62,028 bases of DNA from Candidatus Gottesmanbacteria bacterium (lineage in GTDB: Bacteria > Patescibacteriota > Microgenomatia > JAMCYU01): contig JAZDMI010000020.1 of assembly GCA_043801155.1 (NCBI GenBank), forward strand, positions 1-62,028, given 5' to 3'. How positions within the stretch are numbered: position 1 is the first letter of the stretch; each line of letters begins with the position of its first letter. Of the stretch, positions 9,912 through 37,278 are shown one piece after another. A program made the position numbers and the translations under genes. The notes below the pieces were generated by a model, which did no database searches, was not told the origin of the DNA, and saw nothing but the letters and a program-made list of their open reading frames with translations.

Positions 9912-9965
9912 ATAGTCTTAATACCCAATATAAGTAAATTTAGTTGATAATATCACACAATATAA

Positions 9966-9989
9966 GGATTCGGCCATACGGCCGAACCC
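9966..9989 (-). terminator. hairpin downstream of the major pilin gene
   Basis: GGATTCGGCC-ATAC-GGCCGAACCC has a GC-rich stem with one mismatch. The minus strand then reads TTATATT. It lies 28 nt after the pilin stop. Confidence 0.5.
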
Positions 9990-10016
9990 CTATATTCAAT
10001 CTTTGACTATTTATTG

Positions 10017-10436: not shown

Positions 10437-10560
10437 TTTTCACCTCCCTCCTTCGCTCGCCGTAACTTTAGTGAAGGCGAGTCGCGGATACTGTGTTTAT
10501 ATAAAATTATTATCTATATATTCTACTTTGGGCGAGCTTCGTAGGGCAAGCCCTTCGCTA

Positions 10561-11763
10561 TTAAAATGCACTTGTTAATTGATAGATTGGCATAATAATG
10601 GCAAAAATCAAAAATCCTACACCAACCCCTAATACAACCATTATTATTGGTTCAATGGCAGTTGTCAAGCCCTTGACGGTTTGGTCAGTTTGAAACTCGA
10701 AATAACTCGATAGTTTAAGAAGTGCTTCGTCTAATTTACCGGTCTCTTCGCCGACTTTTGTCATCTGGCTGACAATCGGCGGAAAATCAGGATTTTGACC
10801 TAATGGTATTCCTAATGGAAAACCTTTTTCTACTTCAGAAGCGGCATCTTTTAGAGCTTTCCTATAAGTAACGCTTTCCATCGAATTGGAAACAATATTT
10901 AAGGCTTCAAGAATCGGCAGTCCTGCCCCAACTAAAAGACCTAATGTTCGAGTAAATTCAACCATCATTGTTTCTCTTTTTAAGGGCCCGATTAATGGAA
11001 GGTTCAGAGTAAAAGAGTCCAGTAATTTTTCACCTACTTTAGTTTTGCTTCCATAAATAAAACCAATAACTGCACCGATTGTCCCGATAATTATCAACCA
11101 CCAAAAATTCACAAAAAAATCAGATACTGCCATTAACAAGAGTGTTGTCCATGGAAGATCAACATTAAAATCTTTATAAAGACCAGTCATTTTGGGTATA
11201 ACCATGGTCATCATAATAAAGAAAACTCCAATCATACCAATGATAATAATTACCGGATAAACCATGGCTCCCTTTATCTTGCCACGGAATTCTCTCTCTT
11301 TTTCTAAATTATCGGCTAACCGATTTAAAACCCGGTCGATCATACCGGCTGCCTCTCCCGCCTTTATCGATGATATATAAATCCTGGAGAAATATTGCGG
11401 ATATTTTTCTAAAGCCGAGGCAAAATTATTACCGGCTTCTATCTCATTTAAAATGTCATCAACCATATTAAGCATTGCCTTGTGTTTGGATTGCTGACCG
11501 AGAATTGACAGGGCTTCAGTTAAAGTTAAACCGGCAGCTACCATAGTAGCTAATTGCCTAGTAAAATTAACTATTTCGGAAAAACCAACTCGATCAAAAG
11601 TATATTTAAAAACATTTAACGGCGAATCAATAATTGGCTTTATATCAATTATTAAAAAATTTTGATCTCGAAGAACTTTAGCCGCATCTTTTATAGAACG
11701 TGCTTCGACTGTACCAATAAGCGATCTGCTTTTTTGATCTTTGACACGATATTTAAAAAACAT
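10561..11763 (-). CDS. pilC: type IV pilus platform protein PilC / GspF family
   Basis: 400 aa with two GspF-type repeats and three TM segments. It sits next to pilT and pilB. Confidence 0.9.
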   Translation of the reverse strand: MFFKYRVKDQKSRSLIGTVEARSIKDAAKVLRDQNFLIIDIKPIIDSPLNVFKYTFDRVGFSEIVNFTRQLATMVAAGLTLTEALSILGQQSKHKAMLNMVDDILNEIEAGNNFASALEKYPQYFSRIYISSIKAGEAAGMIDRVLNRLADNLEKEREFRGKIKGAMVYPVIIIIGMIGVFFIMMTMVIPKMTGLYKDFNVDLPWTTLLLMAVSDFFVNFWWLIIIGTIGAVIGFIYGSKTKVGEKLLDSFTLNLPLIGPLKRETMMVEFTRTLGLLVGAGLPILEALNIVSNSMESVTYRKALKDAASEVEKGFPLGIPLGQNPDFPPIVSQMTKVGEETGKLDEALLKLSSYFEFQTDQTVKGLTTAIEPIIMVVLGVGVGFLIFAIIMPIYQLTSAF

Positions 11764-11766
11764 ATT

Positions 11767-12828
11767 CTAACCCCTTCGACCTAGTAAAAGCCGATCTAGT
11801 TCATCAGGTCTTATGGCAAAATTTTGCGCGACAGTCTTTTCTATTTTGCCACTCTTTACTAACCGAGCAAGGGTATTTTCTAGTAAAAGCATCCCCAGCT
11901 CGCCTGATGTTTGAATAATATTGTCAATCAGATGTGACTTTCCATCACGAATAGTACTCTTGACAGCTGGCGTGGCAATGAGGATCTCACAAGCGGGAAT
12001 ACGTCCTCCATTAATAGCCGGTAGTAATCGCTGCGAGAAAATCCCTTCAAGTGTCCCTGCCAGTTGCATCCGGACTTGGGCTTTTGAATGTTCGGGGAAA
12101 ACGTCAACAATACGATCAACCGTTTGGGCAGCAGAATTGGTGTGTAAGGTTGCAAAAACAAGGTGTCCGGTTTCAGCAATCGTTAAGGCCGCCGCAATTG
12201 TCTCGTAATCACGCATTTCGCCAATTAAGACAACATCCGGGTCTTCACGTAAACAAGATCGTAAAGCCACATCCCAGGAATGAGTATCAAGGTGCATTTC
12301 TCGTTGTGAGATGATTGATTTCCCTCTCGGGTATACATATTCGATTGGATCTTCGATAGTAACAATATGGGTTGCTCTTGTCTGATTAATTTCATTTATT
12401 ATGGCTGACAGCGTCGTCGATTTCCCGTGACCGGTTGGTCCGGTTACTAATATAAAACCCTGGCGGAGTGAAGCAAAAGTATGACAAATAGCCGGTAAAT
12501 TAAGTTCATCAATTGCACGAATTTTAAGAGGTATTAACCTAAAAGCCGCCGTCATTCCCGCCTGTTGAAAATAAACATTGACCCGAAAACGCGCCTCTTT
12601 TGTTGCATAGGAAAAGTCTAATTCTTTATTGGCTAGATATAATTCTTTTTGTTCCGATGTTAAAATTGAAAAAATTAGGTGTTCCGCCTCTTCTGGCGTA
12701 ATGATATCTTTATCAATTAGTGCTACTAATTCACCATCAACTCTAAGTGTTGGTTTATTCCCGACAATAAGATGTAGATCCGAGGCATCTCTTCTATTAG
12801 TAATATCTAAAAGTTCAAGAATATCCAC
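11767..12828 (-). CDS. pilT: twitching-motility retraction ATPase PilT
   Basis: Walker A GPTGHGKST, Asp box, a His box-like region, and a PilT-type length of 353 aa. Confidence 0.9.
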   Translation of the reverse strand: MDILELLDITNRRDASDLHLIVGNKPTLRVDGELVALIDKDIITPEEAEHLIFSILTSEQKELYLANKELDFSYATKEARFRVNVYFQQAGMTAAFRLIPLKIRAIDELNLPAICHTFASLRQGFILVTGPTGHGKSTTLSAIINEINQTRATHIVTIEDPIEYVYPRGKSIISQREMHLDTHSWDVALRSCLREDPDVVLIGEMRDYETIAAALTIAETGHLVFATLHTNSAAQTVDRIVDVFPEHSKAQVRMQLAGTLEGIFSQRLLPAINGGRIPACEILIATPAVKSTIRDGKSHLIDNIIQTSGELGMLLLENTLARLVKSGKIEKTVAQNFAIRPDELDRLLLGRRG

Positions 12829-12853
12829 AGTAACCTCCTTTAAAATTTAAAAA

Positions 12854-14557
12854 TTAATCTTGGGCTACCCTAAGCACTTCACTAATCGTCGTTATTCCTT
12901 CAATCGTCTTAAGGTAACCATCTTGCTTCATAGTTATCATACCTTCAGCTACGGCTTGTTCTTCAACATTAGCAGCTGAAGCATGTTCTAATACTAGTCT
13001 AGCAATTTTTTCTGATACTGGCAAAACTTCAAATACACCAACACGTCCTAAATATCCAGTTTGATTACATTCCTGGCATCCTTTGCCTCGATAGAATTTC
13101 CCATTAAAGGAATTAGGAAATAATTTACCAAGAATGTTTTTAAAATCATCAATCATCTCTTTTGTCGGATCATAAGTTTCTTTACAGCTGGGACAAATTT
13201 TACGGCAGATTCGCTGACCAACAACAGCATTTAAACATGACGCAATCAGATATGGTTCGGCATTCATGTCAAGTAGCCGGGGTAGGGCAGTTGAAGAATT
13301 ATTAGTATGTAAAGTCGAAAAGACCAAATGTCCTGTTAGTGCTGCCTGAATTGCTAAGCCGGCTGTTTCACCATCACGAACCTCACCGACTAAAATAATA
13401 TTAGGATCTTGTCTTAAAAATGCCCGTAGTCCGGTGGCAAAGGTTAACCCGGCTGCGGGATTAATTTGGACCTGATTTACTCCGGCAATTTGATACTCGA
13501 CCGGATCTTCAAGAGTAACAATATTTACCTGAGTGGTATTTAATTTTGATAAAACAGCATATAGGGTTGTCGTTTTACCAGATCCAGTAGGTCCGGTTAC
13601 CAAAATAATGCCGTGAGGTCGAGAGATAGCCGTCTCTAAGTTTTTTAAGGCAATACCTCGCAACCCCAATTCAGGTAAAGATGGAATTCCGCCAGTTTTT
13701 TTAAGTAACCTCATGACTACCTTTTCGCCATTGGATGTGGGTAAAGTTGAAATACGAAGGTCAACTTCATCCTGTCCCATTTTGAAATTGAATCGTCCAT
13801 CCTGGGGAATCCGACGTTCATCAATCTTCATATTGGAAAGAATCTTTATCCGTGAAACAACTGCATCATGAACACTTTTAGGCAGAGCTAATTTTTCATG
13901 AAGAATACCGTCGATCCGGTAGCGGACACGGGTTTTCCCTTCTCCGGGCTCAATATGAATATCGGATGCTCGGCTTTTAACAGCAAATTCTAAAAGGGTT
14001 GAGACAATTTTAGCAATTGGAGCTTCTCTAATGATTTCACCTAACTTCCCGGCTTCAACAGTTCTGATTGTGGGGACGATTCTTTCTTTTAAGGCTGCAC
14101 TAACCTCGGTAGCTAAACTTTGACTATATTGTTCTTCAATTATTGTCTGAATTTCTTCAGGCATGGCTAAAAAGGGTTTGATTTTTTTAGCCGATTTTTT
14201 TTCAACAAATTCAATTACTTGTAGATCTAGAGGATCAGCCATCGCCACGCTTAGAACATTTTTTTGGCTATCTAAATCAAAAGGAACTAATACATAGCGA
14301 CGTGCTACCGCTTCAGGAATATAAGTTAATATATCAGGCGAAATACCTTTTCCCAGTAAAGAAACATAGGGGAATCCAAAAAGATGGGCTTTGGCTTGAG
14401 CTAATTGCTCGGGTGTCGCCAGTTTCTTACGAACAATGATTTCTTCAACCGATGCCCCGGTATTAATACTCTCAACGTTAGCCTGTGAAGCAATGTCATT
14501 ATCAATGACTCTATCTTGAACCAGAATATCAGCTAATGATTGAGCAGTTTTAACCAT
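12854..14557 (-). CDS. pilB: type IV pilus assembly ATPase PilB / GspE family
   Basis: N-terminal GSPII domain, Walker A GPTGSGKTT, and a tetracysteine CPSC...CQEC motif. Confidence 0.9.
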   Translation of the reverse strand: MVKTAQSLADILVQDRVIDNDIASQANVESINTGASVEEIIVRKKLATPEQLAQAKAHLFGFPYVSLLGKGISPDILTYIPEAVARRYVLVPFDLDSQKNVLSVAMADPLDLQVIEFVEKKSAKKIKPFLAMPEEIQTIIEEQYSQSLATEVSAALKERIVPTIRTVEAGKLGEIIREAPIAKIVSTLLEFAVKSRASDIHIEPGEGKTRVRYRIDGILHEKLALPKSVHDAVVSRIKILSNMKIDERRIPQDGRFNFKMGQDEVDLRISTLPTSNGEKVVMRLLKKTGGIPSLPELGLRGIALKNLETAISRPHGIILVTGPTGSGKTTTLYAVLSKLNTTQVNIVTLEDPVEYQIAGVNQVQINPAAGLTFATGLRAFLRQDPNIILVGEVRDGETAGLAIQAALTGHLVFSTLHTNNSSTALPRLLDMNAEPYLIASCLNAVVGQRICRKICPSCKETYDPTKEMIDDFKNILGKLFPNSFNGKFYRGKGCQECNQTGYLGRVGVFEVLPVSEKIARLVLEHASAANVEEQAVAEGMITMKQDGYLKTIEGITTISEVLRVAQD

Positions 14558-14596: not shown

Positions 14597-15298
14597 ATGT
14601 CAATATCATTTCACCCTATGAGTATTTTAATAATTGGCGGTAATTTAGACAAACGGAAACAAACGGTACAAGAGCTTATTAAAACAAAATATCAGGTCTC
14701 AAATTTCGATACGGTTCTTATCGAAGGAGAAACATCAATCGGTATCGAACAAATCCGGACACTAGAACACCAAGCGGCTCTTAAACCATATAATTCACCA
14801 TTTAAGGCGATCATTATTCATCCAGGAGAATTATTAACTATCGAAGCTCAAAATGCGCTGTTAAAAACATTAGAAGAAGCAAATGACTATACTATTATTA
14901 TATTAACAGCTTCGCATTCTGATATATTATTACCAACGATTGTCTCTCGTTGCCAAATTATTAAGCTGCCAACGATACCGGAAATTACCCTCGACGAAAA
15001 ATCCATTTCTGCTCACTGCTCACTACTCAAGGCTATCTTAAAAGCTGGGGTAGGGGAAAGGTTAAAAATTGCTAGCCAGATTGGAAAATCAAAAGAAGAT
15101 ATTGAATCCTGGTTGAACGAACAGTTATTTTTTTGGCACCATGTCCTAATCAAAAAAGTCAACATTAGTCTTAAACCATCTCAAATAATTAAAGTTATTC
15201 GGGATTTAGAAAAAACACGGATGGTAATTGAAAGCAATGTTAATCCGAGGCTGGCTTTGGAAATCTTTCTCCTTGATTTACCCAGGGTGTCAAGCTAA
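14597..15298 (+). CDS. holB: DNA polymerase III delta-prime-like clamp-loader subunit
   Basis: AQNALLKTLEE...LLPTIVSRCQ motif block. Confidence 0.7.
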   Translation: MSISFHPMSILIIGGNLDKRKQTVQELIKTKYQVSNFDTVLIEGETSIGIEQIRTLEHQAALKPYNSPFKAIIIHPGELLTIEAQNALLKTLEEANDYTIIILTASHSDILLPTIVSRCQIIKLPTIPEITLDEKSISAHCSLLKAILKAGVGERLKIASQIGKSKEDIESWLNEQLFFWHHVLIKKVNISLKPSQIIKVIRDLEKTRMVIESNVNPRLALEIFLLDLPRVSS

Positions 15299-15331
15299 TC
15301 AATTCTGCAGGTTAAATAGCCAAATTTGTGC

Positions 15332-15360
15332 TTGATTTAGATACTATTTCATGATAAAAT
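15332..15360 (+). promoter_or_regulatory. sigma70-like promoter upstream of gyrB
   Basis: TTGATT (15332-15337), a 17-bp spacer, then an extended -10 TGaTAAAAT (15352-15360). Confidence 0.4.
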
Positions 15361-15375
15361 CATAGTATAAATATA

Positions 15376-15410
15376 CCTTTTCTAGCCTTAGAAAAGGGTG
15401 TTTTTCTTTT
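15376..15410 (+). terminator. intrinsic-terminator-like hairpin in the holB-gyrB gap (possible gyrB leader attenuator)
   Basis: CCTTTTCTA-GCC-TAGAAAAGG is a perfect 9-bp stem followed by GTGTTTTTCTTTT. It ends one nt before the gyrB SD AAGGAG. Confidence 0.5.
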
Positions 15411-15412
15411 AA

Positions 15413-17353
<1,941 letters not shown>

Positions 17354-17391
17354 GTAACTTAAGATACCTAGGTTACTTAGAAAGGAATATT

Positions 17392-19419
17392 ATGGATATT
17401 CAAATAATCGCCTTAACATTTGCGCCTTTAACGGCTATATGTGCCCTATTATATGGGGGATATTTAATTAAAAAAGTTGTTGCGGCAGATCCCGGGTCAG
17501 AAAAAATGCAGGAGATTGGCAAAGCCATTGCTGATGGTGCTATGGCCTATTTAGCCAGACAATTTAAGGTGGTAGGAGTTTTTCTTGGTTTATTAACGAT
17601 ATTCTTAGGGATTGTTTTAGGTTGGGGTACGGCGGCTACATTTGTTTTAGGGGCAGTATTTAGCGCGATTACCGGTTATGTCGCTATGTGGATTGCGGTC
17701 AAGGCTAATATTAGAACTGCCCAGGGAGCTACCCTAGGCTTAAATCCGGCCTTAAAAGTTGCTTTTGGGGCGGGTACTGTTAATGGCATGTTAATTGTTG
17801 GCTTAGGGCTTCTAGGTGTCTCGATTATTTATGCTGCTTGTTACTTTTTAAAAATTACTGAAGGACCTGCTGCCGTAGCTAAACTAGCCACCACAGTTCT
17901 AGTTGGCTATGGCTTTGGCGCCGCTCTTTTAGCCTTGTTTATGAGGGTTGGCGGTGGAATTTTTACCAAAGCCGCTGATGTCGGTGCTGATTTGGTCGGT
18001 AAAGTTGAAAAGGGAATTCCCGAGGATGATCCGAGAAATCCGGCGGTTATCGCTGACCTAGTTGGTGATAATGTCGGTGACTGCGCGGGGATGGGTGCGG
18101 ATGTTTTTGAAAGTTATGCATTAACAATTGTCGCGGCAATGATTTTGGGCGGAACCATGTTTGGATTAAGTGGAGTAGTGTTCCCGCTCTTGGCTAGATC
18201 AGGAGCTATCTGGGCATCAATTTTAGGCACTCTAATTGTCAAGGCTAAAAATGATCAGGAAAATCCCTTAAATCCTTTAATCAGAGGCTTTATCTTATCA
18301 GCGGTAGCGTCCATTATCATTTTTATGGCTTTGGCAATTTTTCTTTTAGGTGAACCAAAGGCCGGCTATGCGGCCGTCTCGGGAATCTTGGCCATGCTGG
18401 CTCTTCTTTATATCACAAAATATTATACTGGGCCAGGTGAAAAACCGGTCGTTGAAATTGCCAAATCGTCAACTACTGGCGCTGGTACTAACTTAATATC
18501 CGGTTTGTCTATTGGAATGGAATCAACTATTCCTTCTGTTCTTGTCGTTGCTGCTGCCATTTTAACTGGGTATCACTTTATGGGCTTTTACGGTATAAGT
18601 TTAGCCGGTATGGGTATGCTGGCAACGACCGGAATTATTATGTCTTTGGATACCTTTGGCCCAATATCGGATAATGCTCAAGGGATTACCGAAATGGCCG
18701 GCTTAACTGAAGGGAAAGCAGCTAAAGTTACCGGAGCATTAGATGCTGTTGGTAATACCACCAAAGCCTTAACTAAAGGTTTCGCCATTGGTTCGGCCGC
18801 CGTGGCCGCCTGTTCTTTATATGCTACATATTTTGAAGCTACAGGACTATCAGTAATTAATATTGCTGATCCAAAAACCTTTGTTGGACTATTACTTGGA
18901 GCAGCTGTTCCATTCTTGTTTTCATCAAGATTAATTTCTGCTGTCGGCCGGGCGGCTTTTGAAATGGTCGAAGAGGTCCGTCGCCAATGGAAATCGATTA
19001 AAGGGATTATGGAAGGAACAGCTAAACCGGATTACGCCAGATGTGTAGAAATATCTACTGTCGCGGCGCAAAGAGAATTGGTTATTCCTGCAGCTTTAGT
19101 AATCGGTAGTCCAATTTTAGCCGGACTTCTAGGCGCCCAAGCACTTGGAGGCTTTTTATCAGGAACTATTGCTTCAGGGCTTCTTTTGGCCTTCTTTATG
19201 GCCAATACCGGCGGAGCCTGGGATAATGCCAAAAAATATATTGAAGACGGTCATTTCGGCGGTAAAGGCTCAGAAACGCATAAAGCCGCGGTTGTCGGAG
19301 ATACAGTGGGAGATCCTTTAAAAGATACTGCTGGCCCAGCGATTAACCCGATGATAAAAATCATTAATATTGTTGCTTTATTAATAGCACCGTTCGTTAT
19401 GTCAATGATTGGTAAGTAA
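17392..19419 (+). CDS. hppA: membrane-bound ion-translocating pyrophosphatase
   Basis: DVGADLVGKVE, DNVGDxAG and GGAWDNAKK signatures in a 675-aa polytopic protein. Confidence 0.93.
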   Translation: MDIQIIALTFAPLTAICALLYGGYLIKKVVAADPGSEKMQEIGKAIADGAMAYLARQFKVVGVFLGLLTIFLGIVLGWGTAATFVLGAVFSAITGYVAMWIAVKANIRTAQGATLGLNPALKVAFGAGTVNGMLIVGLGLLGVSIIYAACYFLKITEGPAAVAKLATTVLVGYGFGAALLALFMRVGGGIFTKAADVGADLVGKVEKGIPEDDPRNPAVIADLVGDNVGDCAGMGADVFESYALTIVAAMILGGTMFGLSGVVFPLLARSGAIWASILGTLIVKAKNDQENPLNPLIRGFILSAVASIIIFMALAIFLLGEPKAGYAAVSGILAMLALLYITKYYTGPGEKPVVEIAKSSTTGAGTNLISGLSIGMESTIPSVLVVAAAILTGYHFMGFYGISLAGMGMLATTGIIMSLDTFGPISDNAQGITEMAGLTEGKAAKVTGALDAVGNTTKALTKGFAIGSAAVAACSLYATYFEATGLSVINIADPKTFVGLLLGAAVPFLFSSRLISAVGRAAFEMVEEVRRQWKSIKGIMEGTAKPDYARCVEISTVAAQRELVIPAALVIGSPILAGLLGAQALGGFLSGTIASGLLLAFFMANTGGAWDNAKKYIEDGHFGGKGSETHKAAVVGDTVGDPLKDTAGPAINPMIKIINIVALLIAPFVMSMIGK

Positions 19420-19434
19420 CCTAAGTTATCTAAT

Positions 19435-22005
19435 ATGGATATCGGTAAAATACAACCAACGGAAATAACCACTGAGATGCAGTCGTCATACCTTGACTAT
19501 GCCATGTCGGTTATTGTGTCACGGGCTTTACCTGACGTTAAAGACGGTCTAAAACCAGTCCACCGCCGAATTCTTTATGCCATGCATCAACTGGGTTTAA
19601 CCCATCAAGCTCATTTTTCTAAATCAGCCAAAGTGGTTGGTGAGGTCTTAGGAAAATATCATCCTCATGGAGATATGTCTGTTTATGATGCCTTGGTCAG
19701 ATTAGCCCAAGATTTTAGTATGCGTTATCCCTTAGTTGAAGGCCAAGGTAATTTTGGTTCAGTTGATGGTGATCCACCGGCGGCGATGAGGTATACCGAG
19801 GTTAGATTGGCAAAAATCAGCCAGGAGATGCTGATTGATATTGATAAAAAAACTGTTGATTTTATCCCAAATTTTGACGCGACATTAGATGAACCGGTCT
19901 TTTTACCGGCTAAATTGCCCAATTTACTGCTGATGGGTTGTGAGGGCATTGCGGTTGGTATGGCGACCAAGATTCCAACTCACAATTTAGGCGAAGTTAT
20001 TGATGCTTTAGTTTTCATGATCGATAAAGCCAAGATAGACAGTGGTACACAGATAGCTGAAAGCCAAAATAAAAACAGAACAAAAGATAACCCTGTCACC
20101 GCTAACAGCTCACTACCGACAGCTGTCTCATTTGATATTACCATCGAAGATTTAGTGGAGTTTATTAAGGGTCCAGATTTCCCAACCGCCGGTACTATTT
20201 ATAATATTACGGAAATTATTGCCGCTTATGCTACTGGAAGAGGCCGAATAGTTATCCGTGGAAAAGCAGAAATTGAGGATGTCGGTCAAGGTAAATCAGC
20301 AATTATTATAAATGAATTGCCATATCAAGTTAATAAGGCATTATTAGTGGCCCATATTGCCGATTTAGTTAAAGACAAGAAACTAGAAGGAATTTCCGAC
20401 CTTCGAGATGAATCTGATCAGCGAGGTATTCGAGTTTATATCGAGCTTAAACGAGACGCCCGACCTCAATCAGTGTTAAATAACTTATATAAGCATACTG
20501 AATTGCAAACGGTTTTTCCGGTTAATATGGTAGCTCTGGTTGATGGAACGCCGCAAACATTGACTTTAAAGATGATCCTCGAAGAATATTTAAAACATCG
20601 CCAGAATGTGGTCAGAAAAAGATCAGAGTTTGAGTTAGCCCAAGCCAAAGCCCGCGCCCATATTCTTGAAGGTTTAAAAATCGCTGTCGACCATATTGAT
20701 GAAGTTATCCAAACGATTAAAAGAGCCAAAGATGCGGATGAGGCTAAGATTAATTTGATGACAAAGTTTAAATTGACTGAAATTCAGGCAACAGCAATTT
20801 TAGATATGCAGCTTCGCCGTCTGGCAGCCCTTGAACGACAAAAGATTGAAGATGAATATCAAATGGTCAAAGAAACAATTATCTATCTTGAGGATTTGCT
20901 AGCTCATCCGGAAAAAATTCTCAAAGTTATCAAAGATGAGTTGAATTATATTAAAGAAAAATATGCTGATCCAAGAAAAACTCGCGTGGTTAAAAGCAAG
21001 GTCGGCGAATTTAGTGACGAACAGTTAATCCAAAAAGAGACAACTATTATTACGATTACGACCAGTGGCTATATTAAGAGACTCTCACCTCTCTCATTTA
21101 AAACACAAGGCAGGGGTGGTAAGGGTGTTATAGGCATGACAACAAAAGAAGAAGATAATATTGATCACTTTTTGTTTACAAATACTCATGAAAATATCCT
21201 ATTTTTCACCAATAAAGGTAAAGTTTATCAGTTAAAGGTGTGGGATATCCCTGAAGGAACAAGAATCAGTAAAGGTCAGGCAATTGTGAATTTAATCAAT
21301 GTCGAACAAGGAGAAAAAGTTTCCTCTGTTTTAACTTACAACGAAAAATCTAATGTAAATAAATTTATCTTCTTAACCACAAAAGGCGGAACCGTCAAAA
21401 AGACAGATATTAATGACTTCACTAATATCAGACGTAATGGACTCACGGCCATTAAATTAATTTCCGGCGATGAACTCTGTTGGGCTAAATTAACTGATGG
21501 TAACTCCGACGTTATTTTAATTACCAATGACGGAAAAGGCATCAAGTTTAATGAAAAGCAAGTCCGACCAATGGGCCGGGACACCATGGGAGTGAGAGGA
21601 ATCCTGATTAAGAAACCTGCCCGCCAGCCTAGTGCAGGCTTGGCAGGCGGGAATGATCGAGTTATTGGTATGGATGTTATAGGTGATCCAAAGGCAAATC
21701 TTTTAGTAATTATGGATAAAGGAATTGGGAAACGAAGTCCTTTATCTGATTTCCCTAAACAGGGCAGGGGAGGAATGGGAGTAAAAGCATGTGAGGTAAC
21801 TGCGCGTACCGGAAAGGTTGTCTCGGCACAAATTATTCCAGAAGAAACAGATACCTGTATTTTGACTTCGTGTAAAGGTCAAGTAGTCAAGGTGAATATT
21901 AATCAAATTCCCAAACTATCGCGAGCAACACAAGGGGTTATTCTGATGAGATTTGCCGACCCCAAAGACTCATTAGCGGCGGCTACTTGCATGACAAAAG
22001 AATAA
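19435..22005 (+). CDS. gyrA: DNA gyrase subunit A
   Basis: [12 protein letters not shown], a QRDR-like HPHGD, the active-site region AAMRYTE, and C-terminal beta-pinwheel repeats. Confidence 0.97.
21616..21651 (+). repeat. GC-rich palindromic element inserted in frame in gyrA
   Basis: CCTGCCCGCCAGCCTAGTGCAGGCTTGGCAGGCGGG pairs CCCGCC/GGCGGG and AGCCT/AGGCT. It encodes [12 protein letters not shown]. The same termini occur at 49254-49294 and 53612-53653. Confidence 0.8.
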
Positions 22006-22041
22006 ACTTTCTTCATTATTCATCATCTATTGACATACTTG

Positions 22042-22067
22042 TATATGATATATTAATATATCATATA
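22042..22067. promoter_or_regulatory. perfect 26-bp palindrome (operator candidate) over the promoter and start codon of the TrpR-like gene
   Basis: TATATGATATATTAATATATCATATA equals its own reverse complement. It overlaps a putative -10 TAATAT (22054-22059), and its last base (22067) is the A of the ATG at 22067-22069. TTGACA lies at 22030-22035. Confidence 0.55.
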
Positions 22068-22456
22068 TGACCCACGTATCGAAGAAAAAATTGTCCGAAC
22101 AGACTTTCGAAGAAATAAAGAATACCTTTCTTCTTGTCCTTACCGAAATTAATAATAAACAGGCAATGAGTGAATTTTTAGATGTCTTTTTATCTACGAC
22201 CGAAAAAGAGATGCTGGCCAAAAGATTAGCGATAATTTATCTATTAGACAATGGTATTCCTGAAACAAATATTGCTCAATTACTTCATGTAACCCAATCT
22301 ACAGTCTCGTTAATGAAATTAAAATATGAAAACAATCAGCCGGGTTTTCAATGGGCAATTAGCCAAATAAAAAAACAAAAGTTATTACAGAATATCGAGA
22401 TATTAGCATTGCGCTTCGCCAAATACGCCGTCCGTGCTTCCGGTGGAAGAATATGA
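22067..22456 (+). CDS. TrpR-related YerC/YecD-family DNA-binding protein
   Basis: LSTTEKEMLAKRLAIIYLL..GIPETNIAQLLHVTQSTVS looks like a helix-turn-helix of the Trp repressor family. Confidence 0.6.
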   Translation: MTHVSKKKLSEQTFEEIKNTFLLVLTEINNKQAMSEFLDVFLSTTEKEMLAKRLAIIYLLDNGIPETNIAQLLHVTQSTVSLMKLKYENNQPGFQWAISQIKKQKLLQNIEILALRFAKYAVRASGGRI

Positions 22457-22464
22457 TATAGTTA

Positions 22465-22490
22465 TATATGATATATCGATATATCATATA
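22465..22490. promoter_or_regulatory. second perfect 26-bp palindrome, 8 nt after the TrpR-like stop
   Basis: TATATGATATATCGATATATCATATA has the same 11-nt arms as 22042-22067; only the central 4 nt differ (TCGA vs TTAA). An extra half-site ATATGATATA lies at 22451-22460. Confidence 0.55.
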
Positions 22491-22570
22491 ATAATAATTC
22501 ACCTCAATTTACGAGAAACTAAACTATCTTCTAGAAGAATATTTTTTACTCAACTAAGTTGCATTTTAAG

Positions 22571-22599
22571 TTGATATTGCGCCTAATTTATCATATAAT
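22571..22599 (+). promoter_or_regulatory. near-consensus promoter directly in front of ORF 22606
   Basis: TTGATA, 17 bp, then TATAAT. The GTG of the ORF lies 7 nt after the -10. Confidence 0.4.
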
Positions 22600-22605
22600 C
22601 TCGGT

Positions 22606-22851
22606 GTGAAAACTATTGCTGAAAGACTACGTCAGGGAGCTCGAATAATTAGTGACCAAGAAGCAATCGATCAAACAAATAGAGGTATCCCTTTTGGTCG
22701 GTTCATGAATGCATTGTGTAAATATAGACAAGATCAATACTCGGCCCATAAAATATTGGTGGCTAAACAGGCTTTAATAAAATTTACCGGTTCTGGAAAA
22801 GAAGCCAACCTGGCTGAAAAACTTTGGAATAAAGCGATTCATCGCCAGTAA
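22606..22851 (+). CDS. hypothetical small protein (81 aa, GTG start)
   Basis: Open frame only. There is no SD and no recognisable motif. Confidence 0.3.
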   Translation: MKTIAERLRQGARIISDQEAIDQTNRGIPFGRFMNALCKYRQDQYSAHKILVAKQALIKFTGSGKEANLAEKLWNKAIHRQ

Positions 22852-22856
22852 AAATA

Positions 22857-23786
22857 CTATTTATTACCGCTGTGAAAGGTGTCATGGATGTCTTTTAATC
22901 GTTTGTTAGTTACATGGGTATAAATAACGGTGGTACTGATACTTGAATGACCTAACATCTCCTGAACGCTGCGGATGTCAGCTCCGGCAATAAGAAGATC
23001 GGTGGCAAAACTATGTCTTAGAGTGTGCGGTGTTGCCTGGATTGGTAAACGTGCTTTGATAACATATTTTTCCACCAAACGTTCCACTGATCTGGCAGTC
23101 AACCGTAAAGTTTCACCGTCTTTCCCGGGATCTAATGTTTTACCGCTGTAGCGGATAAACAATGGTTTGTAGAGGTCCTGGCGAGCTGCTAGATATTTTT
23201 TAATCCAGCCAGCCGACCCGGATGACAAATAAACAACTCTGGATTTTCTACCTTTTCCAATAACACCAAATTCACGACGGTCTAAATTTATTTGATCTTT
23301 ATTCAACGAAGTCAGTTCTGATACCCGTAAACCAGTTGAGAATAATGTTTCCAGTATGGCTTTATCACGAAGCCCTGGCGGTGTACTTATATTAGGCTGA
23401 TTAAGTAATCTTTCAATTTGCTCATTATCGAGAAATTTTATTTGCACTGATTGGTCTTTTTTTGGCAATTCAATTCTTTTTGGCGCTAAGCTCTTTATTT
23501 CTTGCCTTTCCAAATAGCCTAAAAAGGCTCGCAGAATTATTACATGATAAACTTGGGTTCTTTTTGATAAAGGTAAATTATGAACGATTAAGCGGGCTAA
23601 ATAAATCCGGTATTTTTGGACCATATCCAGTGATAAATCAGTAATGGTTATTTTAGGATAGTTAGTCTCAAGCCATCTCTGGAATCGGGCCAGATATAAG
23701 CGATAATTTCTTATTGTCAGTTCCGAACAGCTTCGTTCAATTTCTAAATATTCTAAATATTTATCTATAGCTTCAGTAAAATTCAT
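22857..23786 (-). CDS. xerC: tyrosine recombinase, XerC/XerD type
   Basis: N-terminal SAM-like domain, HTLRHSFATDLL, and the C-terminal catalytic block GHSSISTTVIYTHV. Length is 309 aa. Confidence 0.85.
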   Translation of the reverse strand: MNFTEAIDKYLEYLEIERSCSELTIRNYRLYLARFQRWLETNYPKITITDLSLDMVQKYRIYLARLIVHNLPLSKRTQVYHVIILRAFLGYLERQEIKSLAPKRIELPKKDQSVQIKFLDNEQIERLLNQPNISTPPGLRDKAILETLFSTGLRVSELTSLNKDQINLDRREFGVIGKGRKSRVVYLSSGSAGWIKKYLAARQDLYKPLFIRYSGKTLDPGKDGETLRLTARSVERLVEKYVIKARLPIQATPHTLRHSFATDLLIAGADIRSVQEMLGHSSISTTVIYTHVTNKRLKDIHDTFHSGNK

Positions 23787-24972
23787 ATTATATTATAAAT
23801 AGGGGAGTCTTCCAGGAATAGGCATATAAAGATCAGGTATTAGGCAATAGGGATTAGGCCTTATATAAACATGCATAATTATTTAATTTAAATTAATTAC
23901 ATTAAATAGTGCAAATATAATATTAACAGATTTGACCTCTTCTCCGGAACCAGCCTTGCCTGACGTCGTAAAAGCTTGGTTATACGACATCATAGATAAT
24001 TTATCCTCCGTTGTCAAGTATCAATAAATAACAAGTTTTTACCTGGGTTCCGTAAGAACACGATAAATGTTTATATTCCCGGGAAGAAGATGAAGGTCTT
24101 CTCCAAGACCACGATCATGATTAATGAAACATTCATAATCGTTCTTTACCGAATATAAGATAACATTAGTGTCTTATCCAATATACTTAGGTTTCTAGAA
24201 GCTTACACGACCTTGTGTATTTAGATTGTTAATATGCTCTAAATATATAATTTCGTGCGTAGATAAGTATGTCATTAATAAGGAAATATTCAATAGCTAG
24301 AGCATAATGGCAACTTAAACTTGTATAATTGTGGCCAATTATTATCGTTATACTGTAATTAATTATATATCCTGGTTATAGAGAGGTTTCGGTTTTTTTA
24401 TGGTCTAGTACTAAGAATGAATTTAGAGCATAACAATGCCATAAATTAATATTTTTGAGGCTAACGTAAAATATAATGACATATGGAAATTATACGAATA
24501 TAGAGCGTATTAGCGTGATAAGCAACTAGTTTCGAGGTCACAAATATAACGCCGATATAATTATCCCCAGCACCCGAAGCATGTAATTGCTGACTAAACT
24601 ATGTTTTTTAATATCAAGCTTATTTAGCTTGTCAGGACAAGATAAATTATCGTTTTTGTGGCTAATATATTTGGAAAATAATAATGGTATGAAGATGCAG
24701 AGCATAATAACGAGCTATATTAATATTTTTATGCGTAAATTTGGTGTTCATTTCATCGCAAGGTCAGAAGAGTGCGCTTGCGGTGAACGTAGAAACCGTG
24801 AAAACAATTCCCGAATCCCGTGAAAAGAGTAGTAAGAAGTTATTCCGCGTGAGTTATCCACAACGCGTCTAAATTACTATAGGTTAGTATATTCAAATGA
24901 CTTAACTATATCAAACTATATCTTGCCACTTCCCTCTTCCCCACCACCAAGTCCAATTTTTTTGATATGATC
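23787..24972. other. ORF-free AT-rich region with DnaA-box-like words and an iteron-like motif (candidate origin, or dif/terminus locus, or RNA gene)
   Basis: No credible ORF. A perfect TTATCCACA lies at 24854-24862, with several one-mismatch boxes. The AGAGCATAA-type word occurs five times. Confidence 0.3.
24233..24707. repeat. cluster of five AGAGC(A/G)TA(A/T) words
   Basis: Copies at 24233-24243 (minus), 24298-24307, 24422-24433, 24501-24510 and 24698-24707. Confidence 0.7.
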
Positions 24973-25788
24973 TTATCCCCATATTGTTGTTATTAATACC
25001 AGGATAAAAACGACAACCGATACTGAAATAAATTCAGTAACTGTTCTATGGAAAAGCCTTTCGACCAGATATTGCTGAATCATACCAACCAGGCTATAAA
25101 AAATAGTCGTTAGGAAAAGAGATTCGATGATTGTCTGAATCGGCCAGAATGAAAAGATTATGGCCAATTCGCCGCCGATAAGCGATATTATTAAACAATA
25201 AATGAACAATTGCCAAGAAATTTTTGGTTCTAGCTTCATTGCCCATAAACATTGAAGGCTTAATAAACTATAGATAATAAAAATTAAAATAAAATTTTCT
25301 GCAAAAGGAAGATGAAGTGAAAAAATAATATTTAAGAGTAAAAATAAAGTAAATAAAGTGAGAAATAGACCGACTGAATGAGCTGCTCTTAATAACTGAA
25401 TCGTTCTCTCAGCCGCCACATTATAGATATTTTCAATAAGGAGAATTGCATAAATTCCCACAGCAAAAATAATGTCTATTGGTAGTCTAGTCAACCAACG
25501 AACTGGTAACAAAAAATAAAATAACGGCATGGCAATAACGTACGTAATTGGTAAGATAAATAATGTTAGCCATTCAATACCATTAAGGTCTTCCCATAAA
25601 CCCCAAACAAAAAGCACGTATGTTAAAACAGCTAATCCAATAATAAGATGGTAGCGAAAATTCGGGCCTAGAACTTGAATTAATAAGAGACCGCCTGTTA
25701 AAACACCTACAATTAAACCAAATTTTTCTCTTTTGGTTAAAAATAATTTATGGCTTAGATGGGTATAAAATTTTTTAATCCTTTTTAT
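24973..25788 (-). CDS. polytopic membrane protein, unknown function
   Basis: Multi-TM profile. The start at MIKRIKKF avoids a long overlap with ruvC. Confidence 0.5.
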   Translation of the reverse strand: MKRIKKFYTHLSHKLFLTKREKFGLIVGVLTGGLLLIQVLGPNFRYHLIIGLAVLTYVLFVWGLWEDLNGIEWLTLFILPITYVIAMPLFYFLLPVRWLTRLPIDIIFAVGIYAILLIENIYNVAAERTIQLLRAAHSVGLFLTLFTLFLLLNIIFSLHLPFAENFILIFIIYSLLSLQCLWAMKLEPKISWQLFIYCLIISLIGGELAIIFSFWPIQTIIESLFLTTIFYSLVGMIQQYLVERLFHRTVTEFISVSVVVFILVLITTIWG

Positions 25789-26293
25789 CATGGATTGAAA
25801 AACAGATGGCCAGGGCAAGAGCATCAGCGGCATCATCTGGTCGAGGGAGTTTATAAAGCCCTAAGGTTCTTCTGACAAATTGTTGGATTTGATGTTTAGA
25901 AGCATGGCCGTCGCCTACCAACTTCTTTTTAACCCAAAGTCCCTGGTATTCACAGGTGGTGATTTTCTGCTCGGCGGCTGTTACCATTACTACTCCCCTT
26001 GCCTGACCAACAGTCATGGCTGTTTTGGCATTTCTTCCAAAAAATAATTGTTCAATTATGATTGTCTGTGGCTTATATAGGCGAATTATTTTTCGTAAAT
26101 TTTGCCGAAGCATTAATAGTCTCTCCCCCATTATCATACCTACTGGTGTTTTAATAGTTCCATGGGCTACATAAACTAATCCGTCATTTTTAACCTTTGT
26201 GTTTCGACAATTCATTTTTATCACACCAAAGCCGGTAGTGGCTGTTCCGGGATCAATACCGAGAATAGTTTGCATGTTTGTTTGAATTTTCAT
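25775..26293 (-). CDS. ruvC: Holliday junction resolvase RuvC
   Basis: ILGIDPGTATTGFGVI, and a C-terminal DAADALALAI. Confidence 0.9.
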   Translation of the reverse strand: MKIQTNMQTILGIDPGTATTGFGVIKMNCRNTKVKNDGLVYVAHGTIKTPVGMIMGERLLMLRQNLRKIIRLYKPQTIIIEQLFFGRNAKTAMTVGQARGVVMVTAAEQKITTCEYQGLWVKKKLVGDGHASKHQIQQFVRRTLGLYKLPRPDDAADALALAICFSIHDKKD

Positions 26294-35282: not shown

Positions 35283-35842
35283 TTATTGATCCTCTGAACA
35301 TATTCTCCGGTACGAGTATCGATTAACACCATATCGCCAATTTCAACAAACAAAGGAACTCTAACTTTAACTTTATTATCCAAAACTGCATCCTTGAATA
35401 TATTAGTTGCCGAATTACCACGATAACCAGGTTCAGTTTCTGCAATTGTAAATTCCATTTTAATCGGTAATTCAATTGTTAATGGTTCATCTTGATAAAA
35501 AACTACTTTAATATTCATTCCTTCTTTAAGATACGAGGCTTGATCTCCTATTTTATCGTTAGATAATTCAAACTGCTCAAAGGTATTTGGATCCATAAAA
35601 ACGAAGTTATTACCGTTTTTATAGAGATATTGTGATTCTTTCTTATCTAAATTTGCTTCCTGAACTTTGGCTCCTGATATAAAAACTTTTTCAACAATTG
35701 AACCACTGCGAAGGTTTTTGATTTTTGTTTTTATTGTCGCTGTGCCGCGGCCGAGCTTAACAAACTCATAATTTAAAACCTGGAAGAGATTATTATCTTC
35801 AGTAAAATAAGCTCCGGCTCGTAAATTTGTAACTGAAATCAT
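35279..35842 (-). CDS. efp: elongation factor P
   Basis: 187 aa with an EF-P-like N-terminus and a KLGRGTATIKTK loop. Confidence 0.93.
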   Translation of the reverse strand: MISVTNLRAGAYFTEDNNLFQVLNYEFVKLGRGTATIKTKIKNLRSGSIVEKVFISGAKVQEANLDKKESQYLYKNGNNFVFMDPNTFEQFELSNDKIGDQASYLKEGMNIKVVFYQDEPLTIELPIKMEFTIAETEPGYRGNSATNIFKDAVLDNKVKVRVPLFVEIGDMVLIDTRTGEYVQRINK

Positions 35843-37278
35843 AAATTTTGTAAAAAATTTAATATTGTTCTTACTCCAAATCCGGTTCCGCCCCTGGGTA
35901 TTAGATCATTGCCTTTTTCTTCCCAGGCCGGACCGGCAATATCTATATGCGCCCATGGTATATTTCCGACAAATTCCTCTAGGAATAAGGCAGCCGTTAT
36001 CGCTCCTCCATATCTTTTACCGCTGACGTTTTTAAGATCAGCAACACTTGATTTAATCAATTCCTTATATGTTTTTTCCAACGGCATAGGCCAGATTTTT
36101 TCACCAGCTGTATCAGCCGCAACTTTAATCTTTTCAATAAGATTATTATCTTTGGAAAACAATCCAGCGATTTCTTCACCTAACGCAACGATACATGCCC
36201 CGGTCAAGGTTGCCAAATCAATTATCAGATCTGGTTTTATCTCAACTCCATATGATAATGCATCAGCCAGAATAAGTCTGCCTTCGGCATCGGTGTTGAT
36301 AACCTCGATCGTTTTTCCATTATAAGCCTTAACTATGTCTCCCGGTTTTATCGCCTTACCTGAGGGCATGTTCTCGGTGACCGGGATTAAACCAATCAGG
36401 TGAATTTTGGGCCTTAATTTATCGATAACAGAGAAAATCGCGAGAACGCTGGCAGCGCCAGCCATATCCATTTTCATTGTCTCCATCCCCTCTTGTGGTT
36501 TTAGAGACAAACCGCCGCTATCAAAAGTTATCCCCTTACCGGCTAAAACAATTTTCTTCTTACCATTGCGGTAATCCAGTCTAATAAATTTAGCCGATTC
36601 ATCTGATCCTCGGGCAACACCAGCTAATGCTCCTAAGCCTAATTTTCCGAATTCAGATTCGTCATATATTTTACTGGAAAATTTATCTTTTTTAGCTAAT
36701 TTTTCTGCCATATCCGCCAAATATGTCGGGGTTGTTACCGAAGAGGGCTCATTGACTAAATTTCGGGTAAAAATTGTTGCTTCGCAATATATTTCAGCTC
36801 GGGTAATATATTCTCTAACTTTCACCAGCTCTTTAGCATCCTTGACTAAAATTGTGATTTCAAGTGGTTTAATATCATCCTTCTTATCGGTTTTGTATTT
36901 CTTAAAATCATAAGTACCAAGTAAAAATCCTGTAACAAAAGCCTCGATATTCTCTAATCCGAAGTTAGAACAATCTAATACCACTGATAACAATTTTTCT
37001 TCTTTAATTTTTTGATAAAGCTTGGCACAAGTTAATTGCAGATCAAAAGTTGTTAATTCACTGATTTTTCCAAGACCAACCAGAAAAACATTCTGTACTT
37101 TTAATATTTTTCCTACAGCAAATTTAAATTCTTTTCTGTCTGATTCTTTTTTGAGGATTCCGCCTAATTTTTTATCTAAATCCAGCAATTCTTTTGGCCA
37201 CTCGGTTTCCCAAACAAAAAAAACAAGTGATTCGGACTTTTTTTCATCGAAAATTCCAATTTTTATATTAAATTTCAT
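35839..37278 (-). CDS. pepA: leucyl aminopeptidase (M17)
   Basis: NTDAEGRLILADAL signature and 479 aa length. Confidence 0.9.
   Translation of the reverse strand: MKFNIKIGIFDEKKSESLVFFVWETEWPKELLDLDKKLGGILKKESDRKEFKFAVGKILKVQNVFLVGLGKISELTTFDLQLTCAKLYQKIKEEKLLSVVLDCSNFGLENIEAFVTGFLLGTYDFKKYKTDKKDDIKPLEITILVKDAKELVKVREYITRAEIYCEATIFTRNLVNEPSSVTTPTYLADMAEKLAKKDKFSSKIYDESEFGKLGLGALAGVARGSDESAKFIRLDYRNGKKKIVLAGKGITFDSGGLSLKPQEGMETMKMDMAGAASVLAIFSVIDKLRPKIHLIGLIPVTENMPSGKAIKPGDIVKAYNGKTIEVINTDAEGRLILADALSYGVEIKPDLIIDLATLTGACIVALGEEIAGLFSKDNNLIEKIKVAADTAGEKIWPMPLEKTYKELIKSSVADLKNVSGKRYGGAITAALFLEEFVGNIPWAHIDIAGPAWEEKGNDLIPRGGTGFGVRTILNFLQNL

Follow-up and report, generated by a model that had tools for sequence, protein, structure and literature searches.

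A conserved non-coding locus with a dif-type palindrome, a 43-bp repeat array and a single DnaA box next to xer in Candidatus Gottesmanbacteria

The 62-kb window of Candidatus Gottesmanbacteria DNA analysed here contains an intergenic gap of 1186 bp at positions 23787 to 24972, located between xer, the gene of a Xer-family tyrosine recombinase, and the gene of a DUF5656 membrane protein. The gap holds a 28-bp palindrome of the dif type, an array of direct repeats of about 43 bp and a single conserved DnaA box, in an arrangement that is conserved among relatives. The reading that we favour, though tentatively, is that the gap represents a cis-acting DNA locus, conserved in Candidatus Gottesmanbacteria and specific to this lineage, that would act through bound proteins and would consist of a xer/dif-type module joined to the repeat array. 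The palindrome is probably a site of Xer binding or recombination; that it is also the dimer-resolution site of the chromosome is less likely. All coordinates refer to the 62-kb window, the element is read on the minus strand of the window, and L-numbers denote the related loci that were retrieved.

The gap ranked first among the 50 intergenic gaps of the window, which had a median length of 54.5 bp and of which the second largest measured 837 bp (56815-57651). The initial annotation had singled it out as the largest non-coding stretch of the window and as free of open reading frames (ORFs), and both descriptions were borne out. No ORF of more than 78 codons was present in the gap with the standard code, and with TGA, TAG or TAA reassigned no consistent ORF appeared in the gap of the window genome or of seven relatives. 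The mini-ORFs of the gap matched no Pfam family, and a similarity search of plasmid and phage DNA with the gap gave no match. The gap had also been called AT-rich; its GC content of 32.6% was indeed below the 36.1% of the window, but only slightly so.

Relatives were recovered by look-ups of exact proteins and by homologue searches. This yielded nine syntenic loci of Candidatus Gottesmanbacteria and, together with the window, ten genomes. The Xer protein was about 75 to 80% identical to that of the window in L001, L002, L005, L006, L020 and L022 and 64% identical in L023; L054 and L057, with a DUF5656 protein 49% identical to that of the window, lie on contigs of 1.07 and 1.29 Mb. Overall, Xer identity ranged from 64 to 81% for the loci reached through a Xer relative, and DUF5656 identity from 49 to 70% where it was measured (L001, L002, L020, L054 and L057). 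An ORF-free gap of 0.9 to 1.5 kb was located directly downstream of the DUF5656 gene in all nine related loci. In L023, L054 and L057 one to three genes separated this gap from xer, and the element thus remains linked to the DUF5656 side. Between the window and its relatives the 4-fold degenerate sites of xer were saturated (30 to 41% identity), yet the gap aligned at 54 to 58% and contained some invariant blocks, from which it follows that purifying selection acts on the gap. The order and orientation of the motifs were identical in all ten genomes, and the spacers between the motifs varied in length.

Neither such a gap nor an array was present at the Xer relatives of 60% identity or less (L007-L019). 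These outgroup loci were obtained by a scan of a genome collection with the Xer protein and by a scan of a metagenome collection with the Xer alignment, which gave distant relatives only. L001 and L005, whose Xer proteins were 80% and 75% identical to that of the window, both come from the assembly GCA_040960625.1, where the same syntenic locus occurs in two different genomes (contigs of 229 kb and 788 kb); this record is thus a mixed or metagenome-level assembly.

The palindrome and the neighbouring Xer recombinase

At positions 23963 to 23990 of the minus strand, 177 bp upstream of xer, the gap contains a 28-bp imperfect palindrome of the dif type with an 11-6-11 layout (ATGTCGTATAA-CCAAGC-TTTTACGACGT). 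The arms were symmetric at 9 of 11 positions, and the palindrome was unique in the window when three mismatches were allowed (0 expected). It was kept in all relatives from which the xer-proximal end of the gap had been retrieved. Across the clades the arms read (G)TCG(T/C)A(T/C)AA and TTTT(A/G)CGAC, and L023, L054 and L057 shared a symmetric change in the arms from T-A to C-G. The central 6 bp varied more than the arms, with CNANNC in the close clade versus TAATAC in L023, L054 and L057. A related site, GGTTCGCATAA-GAAACC-TTTTGCGAACC, was found 45 nt upstream of xer and behind a TTGACA-17-TAATAT promoter in L013, L014 and L016, the Xer proteins of which were 60% identical to that of the window. 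The initial annotation had suggested a dif-like or terminus-like role for the gap; the palindrome, which had not been located at that time, supports the dif-like part of this suggestion but not the terminus part.

The xer gene (22857-23786, minus strand) was identified with Pfam and NCBIfam and encodes a protein of 309 amino acids. This protein scored 243 bits with the NCBIfam model of XerC and 231 bits with that of XerD, which is below the equivalog cut-offs for XerC, XerD and XerA, and it scored weakly with the models of XerS and XerH. The closest PDB entry was XerD 1a0p (E = 4e-40). The best scores were thus those with the XerC and XerD models, though below their cut-offs; the earlier annotation had assigned the neighbouring gene to the XerC/D type. 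A search of the window with a Xer hidden Markov model gave one match, and Xer is the sole tyrosine recombinase in the 62 kb.

The palindrome would be the core site that is bound, and probably recombined, by this neighbouring recombinase. When compared by eye with the sites tabulated in PMC2731167, the left arm resembled published alpha-proteobacterial XerC arms such as AAGTCGCATAA and TAATCGCATAA, and the right arm and the overall near-palindrome resembled the near-palindromic dif of Magnetospirillum. Both arms thus appear to be of the XerC-arm type, as would be expected if one recombinase acted on both. With classical XerCD dif sites, especially the alpha-proteobacterial ones, the palindrome shares the 28-bp 11-6-11 layout, a XerC-like left arm, a variable central hexamer and an intergenic position. 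However, the right arm of classical sites is the conserved XerD arm TTATGTNAANT, whereas the right arm here, TTTTGCGAC, is the palindromic partner of the left one. A further difference is that only one Xer was encoded in the 62-kb window, and the terminus location of the classical sites was not found here.

Gene and site together would form a linked xer/dif module resembling XerS/difSL and XerH/difH. The sites difSL and difH are linked to the genes of their single recombinases (PMC5357621, PMC2731167). In XerS/difSL of streptococci and lactococci and in XerH/difH of Helicobacter and Campylobacter one Xer gene is likewise linked to an imperfect palindrome with similar arms at a distance of tens to hundreds of bp. 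In contrast to XerS and XerH, which have about 355 amino acids, the 309-residue recombinase studied here is XerC/D-like in size as well as in sequence. The central region comprises 6 bp here, compared with 11 bp in difSL and 6 to 10 bp in difH (PMC5357621). Moreover, unlike difSL and difH, the site was not accompanied by a skew switch, and a repeat array of about 0.8 kb is fused to it.

The position of the palindrome relative to the xer promoter points to an additional regulatory function. The promoter TTGACA-17-TATGAT was identified at 24017 to 23989 of the minus strand in a promoter scan (11 of 12 matches), and TTGACA-17-TAATAT was conserved in L001, L002, L005, L006, L020 and L022. In the window genome the site starts at about +1 of this promoter. 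In L023, L054 and L057 the full palindrome stayed at the end of the array, at most 2 kb from xer, and a half-site corresponding to the left arm overlay the -10 element of the xer promoter. Both observations suggest that Xer probably represses its own gene. The combination of a half-site at the -10 element with a full site elsewhere suggests that Xer may bind at both, for recombination as well as for autoregulation.

L023 provided an indirect hint of recombination. An exact direct repeat of 12 nt, ATGTCGCACAAT, which is identical to the left arm of the palindrome, occurred at 3040 to 3051 and at 4894 to 4905 of this locus. The two copies flanked about 1.85 kb with three inserted genes, which encode a Trans_reg_C protein and two unknown proteins. 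Such a duplication of the left arm looks like the trace expected from integration at a site of this kind. A third variant of the palindrome, with the arms 17 nt apart, was located at the xer promoter of the same locus (4949-4985).

A scan of a viral collection for the palindrome gave four matches. One of these was located in L027, an IMG/VR contig of 36.5 kb that represents a fragment of a temperate phage with genes for an integrase, Erf, a replication organiser and an endolysin. The site (5488-5511; GTCGTATAA-CCATAT-TTTTACGAC) is intergenic and about 370 bp from the integrase gene, the product of which is 29% identical to Xer. An attP imitating the site of the host is one possible explanation; as the whole viral collection gave four matches, chance is another, and the site was not used as evidence.

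The repeat array and the DnaA box

The dominant feature of the gap, which had been missed in the initial annotation, is an array of six direct units of about 43 bp at 24217 to 24741 of the minus strand. A unit profile and alignments gave the consensus (T)AGCCTY-AAAAT-N8-TTTAGNGC-N8-GCNCTAAAT. The copies on the minus strand are at 24692-24741, 24621-24668, 24500-24545 (degenerate), 24418-24467, 24296-24340 and 24217-24262. Each unit is composed of a TAGCCTC motif, an A-tract and a 24-bp dyad (TTTAGNGC-N8-GCNCTAAA); some of the copies in the window are degenerate. With the unit profile 29 copies were found in eight genomes, three to six per array and all in one shared orientation, while a search of about 250 kb, comprising the window and the related loci, found no copy elsewhere than in the gap. 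The spacing of the units was irregular (73 to 116 bp, up to 210 bp), but that between the first and the second unit was conserved at 72 to 78 bp. Blocks between the units were also conserved, for example ACCATAAAAAAACCGAAACC at 24385 to 24404 and AAAAACCGAAA.

In the dyad of the unit (8 and 10 pairs in 29 units) the proportion of paired cells and every measure of covariation were no different from those of shuffled controls, and the sixth position of the dyad was unpaired in 18 of the 29 units. G-U pairs and A-C mismatches were equally frequent, with 12 each, and there was thus no strand asymmetry.

The array was also compared with known types of repeats. A CRISPR array was rejected because the spacing varied irregularly between 73 and 210 bp and the sequence between the units was conserved between species; no cas family was detected among the Pfam-scanned genes of the window or among the genes called within 10 kb in the relatives. 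Integron attC sites, type III toxI repeats, transposon ends and an invertible switch were dismissed as well. The grounds for these rejections taken together were the irregular spacing, the conserved DNA between the units, the lack of partner genes, an orientation that was identical in all ten assemblies, and flanking inverted repeats that were not consistently placed. A scan of the viral collection for the unit dyad gave 26 single matches, which is consistent with chance. In L018, whose Xer was 49% identical, a TTTAG-N14-CTAAA dyad (3956-3979) with an outline like that of the unit core was present 4 nt upstream of the xer start codon; this is a single case and possibly due to chance.

The array accompanies the palindrome rather than xer and may be a regulatory platform, or else an architectural or accessory region of the kind known from cer and psi. 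One of these roles is favoured by analogy with cer and psi, and a PepA-family gene is present in the window. At cer and psi a Xer core is combined with accessory sequences and with PepA plus ArgR or ArcA, and a conserved non-coding region on one side of the core is the feature shared with the locus described here. The accessory regions of cer and psi comprise about 160 to 180 bp. In contrast, the region described here extends over about 700 to 900 bp, contains 43-bp repeats and a DnaA box, and is chromosomal and present throughout the lineage rather than plasmid-borne. DnaA would be bound at one fixed position within the array.

A perfect DnaA-box consensus had been reported at 24854 to 24862, and this was confirmed. 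The box, TGTGGATAA, is located on the minus strand and was recovered by a DnaA-box scan and in the alignments as a single conserved high-affinity site. It was kept at the equivalent position in all ten genomes and was perfect in eight of them, while L020 and L022 read TGTGGAAAA. In L002 a perfect box was present in the opposite orientation and a few bases away, which indicates that selection acts on this motif as double-stranded DNA. The enrichment of box-like words claimed for the gap was real but modest, and weaker than stated: three words with at most one mismatch were present, whereas shuffles gave an expectation of 0.48 and the whole window a density of about 0.55 per 1186 bp (29 such words in 62 kb, four of them perfect). 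The three one-mismatch words listed earlier were correct in position and mismatches, but they were not conserved as boxes. The word at 24973 consists of the last codons and the stop codon of the DUF5656 gene, that at 24657 is TTAGCCNCA, the 5' start of a 43-bp unit, and that at 24561 was conserved only as TGCTGGGGA. The two-mismatch words were likewise given with correct coordinates and mismatch counts, but words with at most two mismatches occurred in the relatives at or below the shuffle expectation. The gap thus contains one genuine DnaA box and no cluster of boxes.

A nearly pure A/T stretch at 23875 to 23930 had been proposed as an unwinding element. Composition and alignment confirmed 89% A+T for this stretch on the minus strand, and it was AT-rich in all close relatives. 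However, it belongs to the xer leader of about 200 nt, and with some 900 bp between it and the DnaA box it does not qualify as an unwinding element adjacent to DnaA. Conserved AT-rich tandem 10-mers were present 38 bp from the DnaA box, at 24900 to 24923.

The remaining motifs of the minus strand are described here in order from the DUF5656 gene towards xer. The 5' boundary of the element, just past the DUF5656 stop codon, is formed by the purine run TGGTGGTGGGGAAGAGGGAAGTGG at 24926 to 24949; in the alignments GGGGAAGTGG-like runs were present at this boundary in all relatives. The tandem 10-mers mentioned above (GATATAGTTTGATATAGTTAAGT / GATATAGTTTGATATAGTT) were detected by Tandem Repeats Finder and were almost invariant across the ten genomes. 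They are followed by a box that resembles a -10 element, CCTATAGTAA (TATAGT/TATAAT; 24874-24884), which was found in the alignments, lies 5 to 26 nt upstream of the DnaA box and may function as a promoter. A promoter-like sequence, TTGATA-17-TATACT, was found at 24914 to 24886 by the promoter scan (10 of 12 matches), but the -35 element and the spacing of this putative promoter were not conserved. The TTTCACG motif occurs in two direct copies with a distance of about 23 bp (TTTTCACGGGATTCGGGAATTGTTTTCACGG; 24796-24828), which were kept in most relatives, and the second copy read TTTCACAGCCTC in L054 and L057. A TGAACAC...TACGCATAAAA block is located between these motifs and the repeat array.

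On the xer side of the array a purine-pyrimidine inverted repeat, GGAGAAG / CTTCTTCC (CTTCTCC), capable of forming a hairpin, is located at 24081 to 24112. It was detected as a terminator-like match and in folds of seven genomes and was present in every genome of the close clade, but a proper U-tail was missing. About 15 nt downstream of the palindrome, at 23936 to 23947, the invariant alignment columns defined a CCGGAGAAG-GG motif; in L013, L014 and L016 the related AAGAAGTGG followed the palindrome-type site.

Replication polarity and the competing readings

As bulk skew depends on the orientation of the genes, the skew of the coding strand was determined at third codon positions (GC3) and at 4-fold sites for each gene orientation on each side of the gap. 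An origin or a terminus at the gap predicts equal skew in the two majority classes, that is, in the genes pointing at the gap, while a single replication fork predicts a difference. The analysis covered about 10 kb on each side in five relatives, and 23 kb and 37 kb in the window. With the gene orientation given relative to the locus, the GC3 skew on the DUF5656 side of the five relatives was +0.046 for plus genes (43 genes) and -0.149 for minus genes, and on the xer side it was +0.057 for plus genes (13 genes of at least six families) and -0.132 for minus genes (32 genes). The 4-fold sites gave -0.01 (plus) and -0.20 (minus) on the DUF5656 side and +0.01 (plus) and -0.26 (minus) on the xer side. 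The pattern was alike in each genome, including L054 and L057, whose genes on the xer side belong mostly to other families. In the window the majority classes had GC3 skews of +0.059 and -0.040, which is the same sign but weaker. On either side, the strand carrying DUF5656 and xer therefore has the behaviour of a leading strand, with no polarity switch at the gap. These values have to be read with the reservation that the minority class on the DUF5656 side is dominated by one TPR gene and that codon bias of highly expressed genes could contribute. Bulk cumulative GC skew had a local maximum at the gap, but it followed the orientation of the genes throughout the window, and the maximum results from the purine-rich coding strands. 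The orientation of the locus relative to its position on all four long contigs is weakly consistent with this polarity: it is the one expected if the contigs start near the origin, which would place the locus at about 4 to 22% of the genome from the start.

Several points weigh against the favoured reading of a xer/dif-type module with an array. Sites of the dif type are normally near the shift point of the GC skew (PMC3025954), whereas skew at third positions and 4-fold sites showed no switch here; if the site is the chromosomal dif, it is off the terminus or the terminus is beyond the sequence covered. The left arm overlaps with sequence resembling a -10 element (TATAAT, CACAAT), and its recurrence at xer promoters could partly be plain promoter sequence. 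The single covarying position of the arms would also fit a 5' hairpin of the xer mRNA. The half-sites of the 43-bp unit are unlike the arms of the palindrome, and no link of the units to Xer was found. An accessory region of about 700 to 800 bp would be several times larger than that of cer or psi, and a pure recombination model leaves the role of the DnaA box unexplained.

Among the alternatives, the one that survives best, although we regard it as unlikely, is that one or more weakly structured non-coding RNAs are transcribed from the minus strand, starting at the promoter-like box. DnaA would then be a regulator bound at an operator, and the units would serve as modules that bind protein or RNA (a sponge) or would form an array of small RNA genes. 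The distance of 5 to 26 nt from the conserved TATAGT/TATAAT box to the DnaA box downstream of it is operator-like, the units share one orientation, and all close relatives have a hairpin ahead of the xer promoter. Eight sigma-70-like promoters were found in L006 against 2.7 expected; seven were on the strand in question, three of these within units. L054 and L057 have no protein-coding target downstream of the promoter, and the z-score of folding was -2.2 for the minus strand against -1.5 for the plus strand, values that are modest for both. On the other hand, Rfam searches with the gap of the window and of two relatives gave no relevant match at gathering or at permissive thresholds (E up to 5 to 10). 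RNAalifold gave only -0.4 kcal/mol for the 5' block and -9.9 kcal/mol for the whole element in ten genomes; the consensus is essentially unstructured, and its only hairpins were the terminal palindrome and one unit. The 29 units lacked covariation and had no excess of G-U over A-C. The GC content of the gap was 3 to 11 points below that of the locus in eight genomes, lower in L054 and L057 too, and under the coding level in every genome. The -35 element and the spacing of the putative promoter are not conserved, no U-tailed terminator was found, and the inverted DnaA box of L002 implies that at least this box acts as DNA. A highly structured RNA is therefore unlikely, and the unannotated RNA considered in the initial annotation was not supported as a structured one. 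The large RNAs OLE, GOLLD, ROOL, HEARO and raiA share the size class of about 0.8 to 1 kb, the conservation within a single lineage and the lack of an ORF with the gap, but they differ from it in that the gap has no Rfam match, no conserved structure or covariation and a GC content below that of coding sequence.

That the locus is a true terminus, with the palindrome as chromosomal dif in the manner of XerS/difSL and the array as a fork trap or terminus-organising element, is decidedly unlikely. The dif-type site adjoins the Xer gene, the gene blocks converge, the cumulative GC skew peaks locally at the gap, and all 43-bp units point one way, as polar Ter sites would. In addition, published dif sites can be tens of kb away from the skew maximum (table in PMC2731167). 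However, at a terminus the two majority classes should share the same third-position skew, whereas they differed by 0.18 in the relatives and by 0.10 in the window. The plus genes of the xer side (xer, pilB, ddl and others) were at or above about 0 and the minus genes at about -0.13 in the five genomes, and further left in the window, at 242 to 14557, the genes return to the minus strand. The bulk-skew maximum is accounted for by purine-rich coding strands, and the same strand was leading on both sides. The convergence of gene blocks on the gap noted in the initial annotation is real, but the blocks actually meet at 22851/22857, downstream of xer.

An unconventional oriC or an iteron-type origin, at which DnaA and an unknown protein binding to the 43-bp repeats open the AT-rich 10-mers, is improbable. 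A perfectly conserved DnaA box lies 35 to 60 bp from the AT-rich tandem 10-mers, and the 13-mers and box R1 of E. coli have the same order and orientation. The 43-bp direct repeats resemble iterons, and in some units the 5' portion (TTAGCCACA, TTAGCCTCA) matches a DnaA box with one or two mismatches. The genes gyrB, gyrA, holB, ruvC and dnaB are in the neighbourhood, and there is a precedent in another lineage of the candidate phyla radiation (CPR), in which the origin is not evident from gene content and has short repeats and words resembling DnaA boxes (PMC4736985). Against an origin, each genome has a single conserved box with at most one mismatch, words with up to two mismatches are at or below chance in the relatives, and a unit spacing of 73 to 116 bp is unsuited to a DnaA filament. 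No initiator gene is adjacent, no DnaA signature was found in the six frames of the window, and neither dnaA nor dnaN was among the genes called within 10 kb in seven relatives. Genes on both flanks point at the gap. In five genomes, the gene sets of which differed in part, both sides gave a GC3 skew of about +0.05 for locus-plus genes and of about -0.13 to -0.15 for locus-minus genes, in agreement with the 4-fold sites; the genes on the DUF5656 side thus behave as leading-strand genes running into the gap. For these reasons the origin-like role put forward in the initial annotation was not upheld. The iteron-type origins of pSC101, P1, F, RK2 and Vibrio chromosome 2 share with the locus a layout in which AT-rich repeats are followed by one DnaA box, by direct repeats and, ahead of the next gene, by a promoter that an inverted repeat overlaps. 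In contrast to these origins, the gene downstream is that of a tyrosine recombinase, the neighbours are a membrane protein and this recombinase rather than an initiator gene, and the locus is within one chromosomal replichore as judged from the skew. Iterons are about 20 bp long at a spacing of about 22 bp, whereas the repeats here have 43 bp and irregular distances of 73 to 116 bp.

A centromere-like or chromosome-organising site, with 43-bp repeats bound by a partition protein or a condensin-loading protein, is very improbable. The sopC site of F consists of 43-bp repeats with an inverted-repeat core; the unit described here is formally similar in size and in its internal dyad, the units occur at a single locus, and the conserved distance of 72 to 78 bp between the first two units amounts to partial helical phasing. 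However, the units are not contiguous, and none of the loci had parA, parB or another partition gene within 10 kb.

The last alternative, a coding sequence in decay or a neutral spacer in which the motifs arose by chance, is effectively refuted; the former had been named as a possible refutation of the gap's significance. Several copies of the unit in the window are degenerate, but the ORF-free gap and the order of its motifs were kept in ten genomes despite saturated synonymous sites, no ORF existed under any code, the mini-ORFs had no Pfam match, and the indels were not multiples of three.

Neighbouring genes and significance of the locus

The DUF5656 gene (24973-25836, minus strand; Pfam) encodes a polytopic membrane protein and is the last gene of a yebC-ruvC-DUF5656 run. 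The element was always directly downstream of it, even where other genes part the element from xer. The ORF of ruvC (25775-26293) and the listed ORF of DUF5656 overlap by 62 nt (25775-25836). As the DUF5656 genes of the relatives are 15 to 40 codons shorter, the start in the window is probably downstream of the first ATG.

The neighbourhood also comprises gyrB, gyrA, holB, ruvC and dnaB. The genes at 14597 to 22851 (holB, gyrB, a H+-pyrophosphatase gene, gyrA and two small genes) behaved as lagging-strand genes, in head-on orientation, according to third-position skew, and this was also found in five relatives. The gene of the membrane H+-pyrophosphatase separated gyrB from gyrA in the window as well as in every relative covering this region (L001, L002, L005 and L006). 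The stretch downstream of xer (22067-22851 in the window; also L021, L022, L001, L005 and L006) varied between genomes and contained a gene of a TrpR-like helix-turn-helix (HTH) protein, an ORF of 81 to 87 amino acids without family, GerE-type HTH genes, or none of these. These small DNA-binding proteins are candidates for binding to the repeat array. In L054, a distant relative, the xer-gyrA interval is syntenic apart from a gene of a Y1 (IS200/IS605-type) transposase (18328-19005).

A PepA-family (M17) aminopeptidase gene (35839-37278) and dnaB (39160-40524) are located 11 to 16 kb from the gap. In E. coli, PepA assists Xer recombination at cer and psi as the accessory factor, but it is also an ordinary peptidase. 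A scan of the window for tRNA and tmRNA detected tRNA-Leu at 37366 only. The second-largest gap (56815-57651) had a GC content of 32% and ORFs of up to 73 amino acids, which were short and unconserved; it contained a pair of 18-nt inverted repeats 608 bp apart and had no Rfam match.

In the literature nothing specific was found on dif sites or origins of CPR bacteria or Gottesmanbacteria, and no described counterpart was found for a xer/dif module fused to a large, ordered repeat array with a selected DnaA box and located, as it appears, in the middle of a replichore. The array, the DnaA box and the dif-type site could together represent an undescribed type of chromosome-maintenance locus, with a Xer site off the terminus, control by an accessory array of about 0.8 kb and coupling to the replication cycle through DnaA, or alternatively an element of iterons plus DnaA box with a role comparable to that of datA or DARS. 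This extension of the favoured reading is rather unlikely.

Genomes of CPR bacteria are tiny and tightly packed, and an ordered non-coding locus of 1 kb that is kept across a class-level lineage must matter functionally. With this locus the group gains its first concrete candidate for a Xer core site, a 28-mer beside the recombinase gene with a plausible autoregulatory half-site. The locus also provides a single DnaA box that is under clear selection outside a recognisable origin, and a new family of 43-bp repeats that is confined to one locus. Bulk GC skew together with convergent genes can mimic a terminus, and the decomposition of skew at third positions tells the two apart. If the palindrome is a dimer-resolution site, its position in the middle of a replichore would challenge the rule that dif is located at the terminus. 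If the array is accessory or regulatory, it would represent a new mode of control for Xer recombination or for DnaA.

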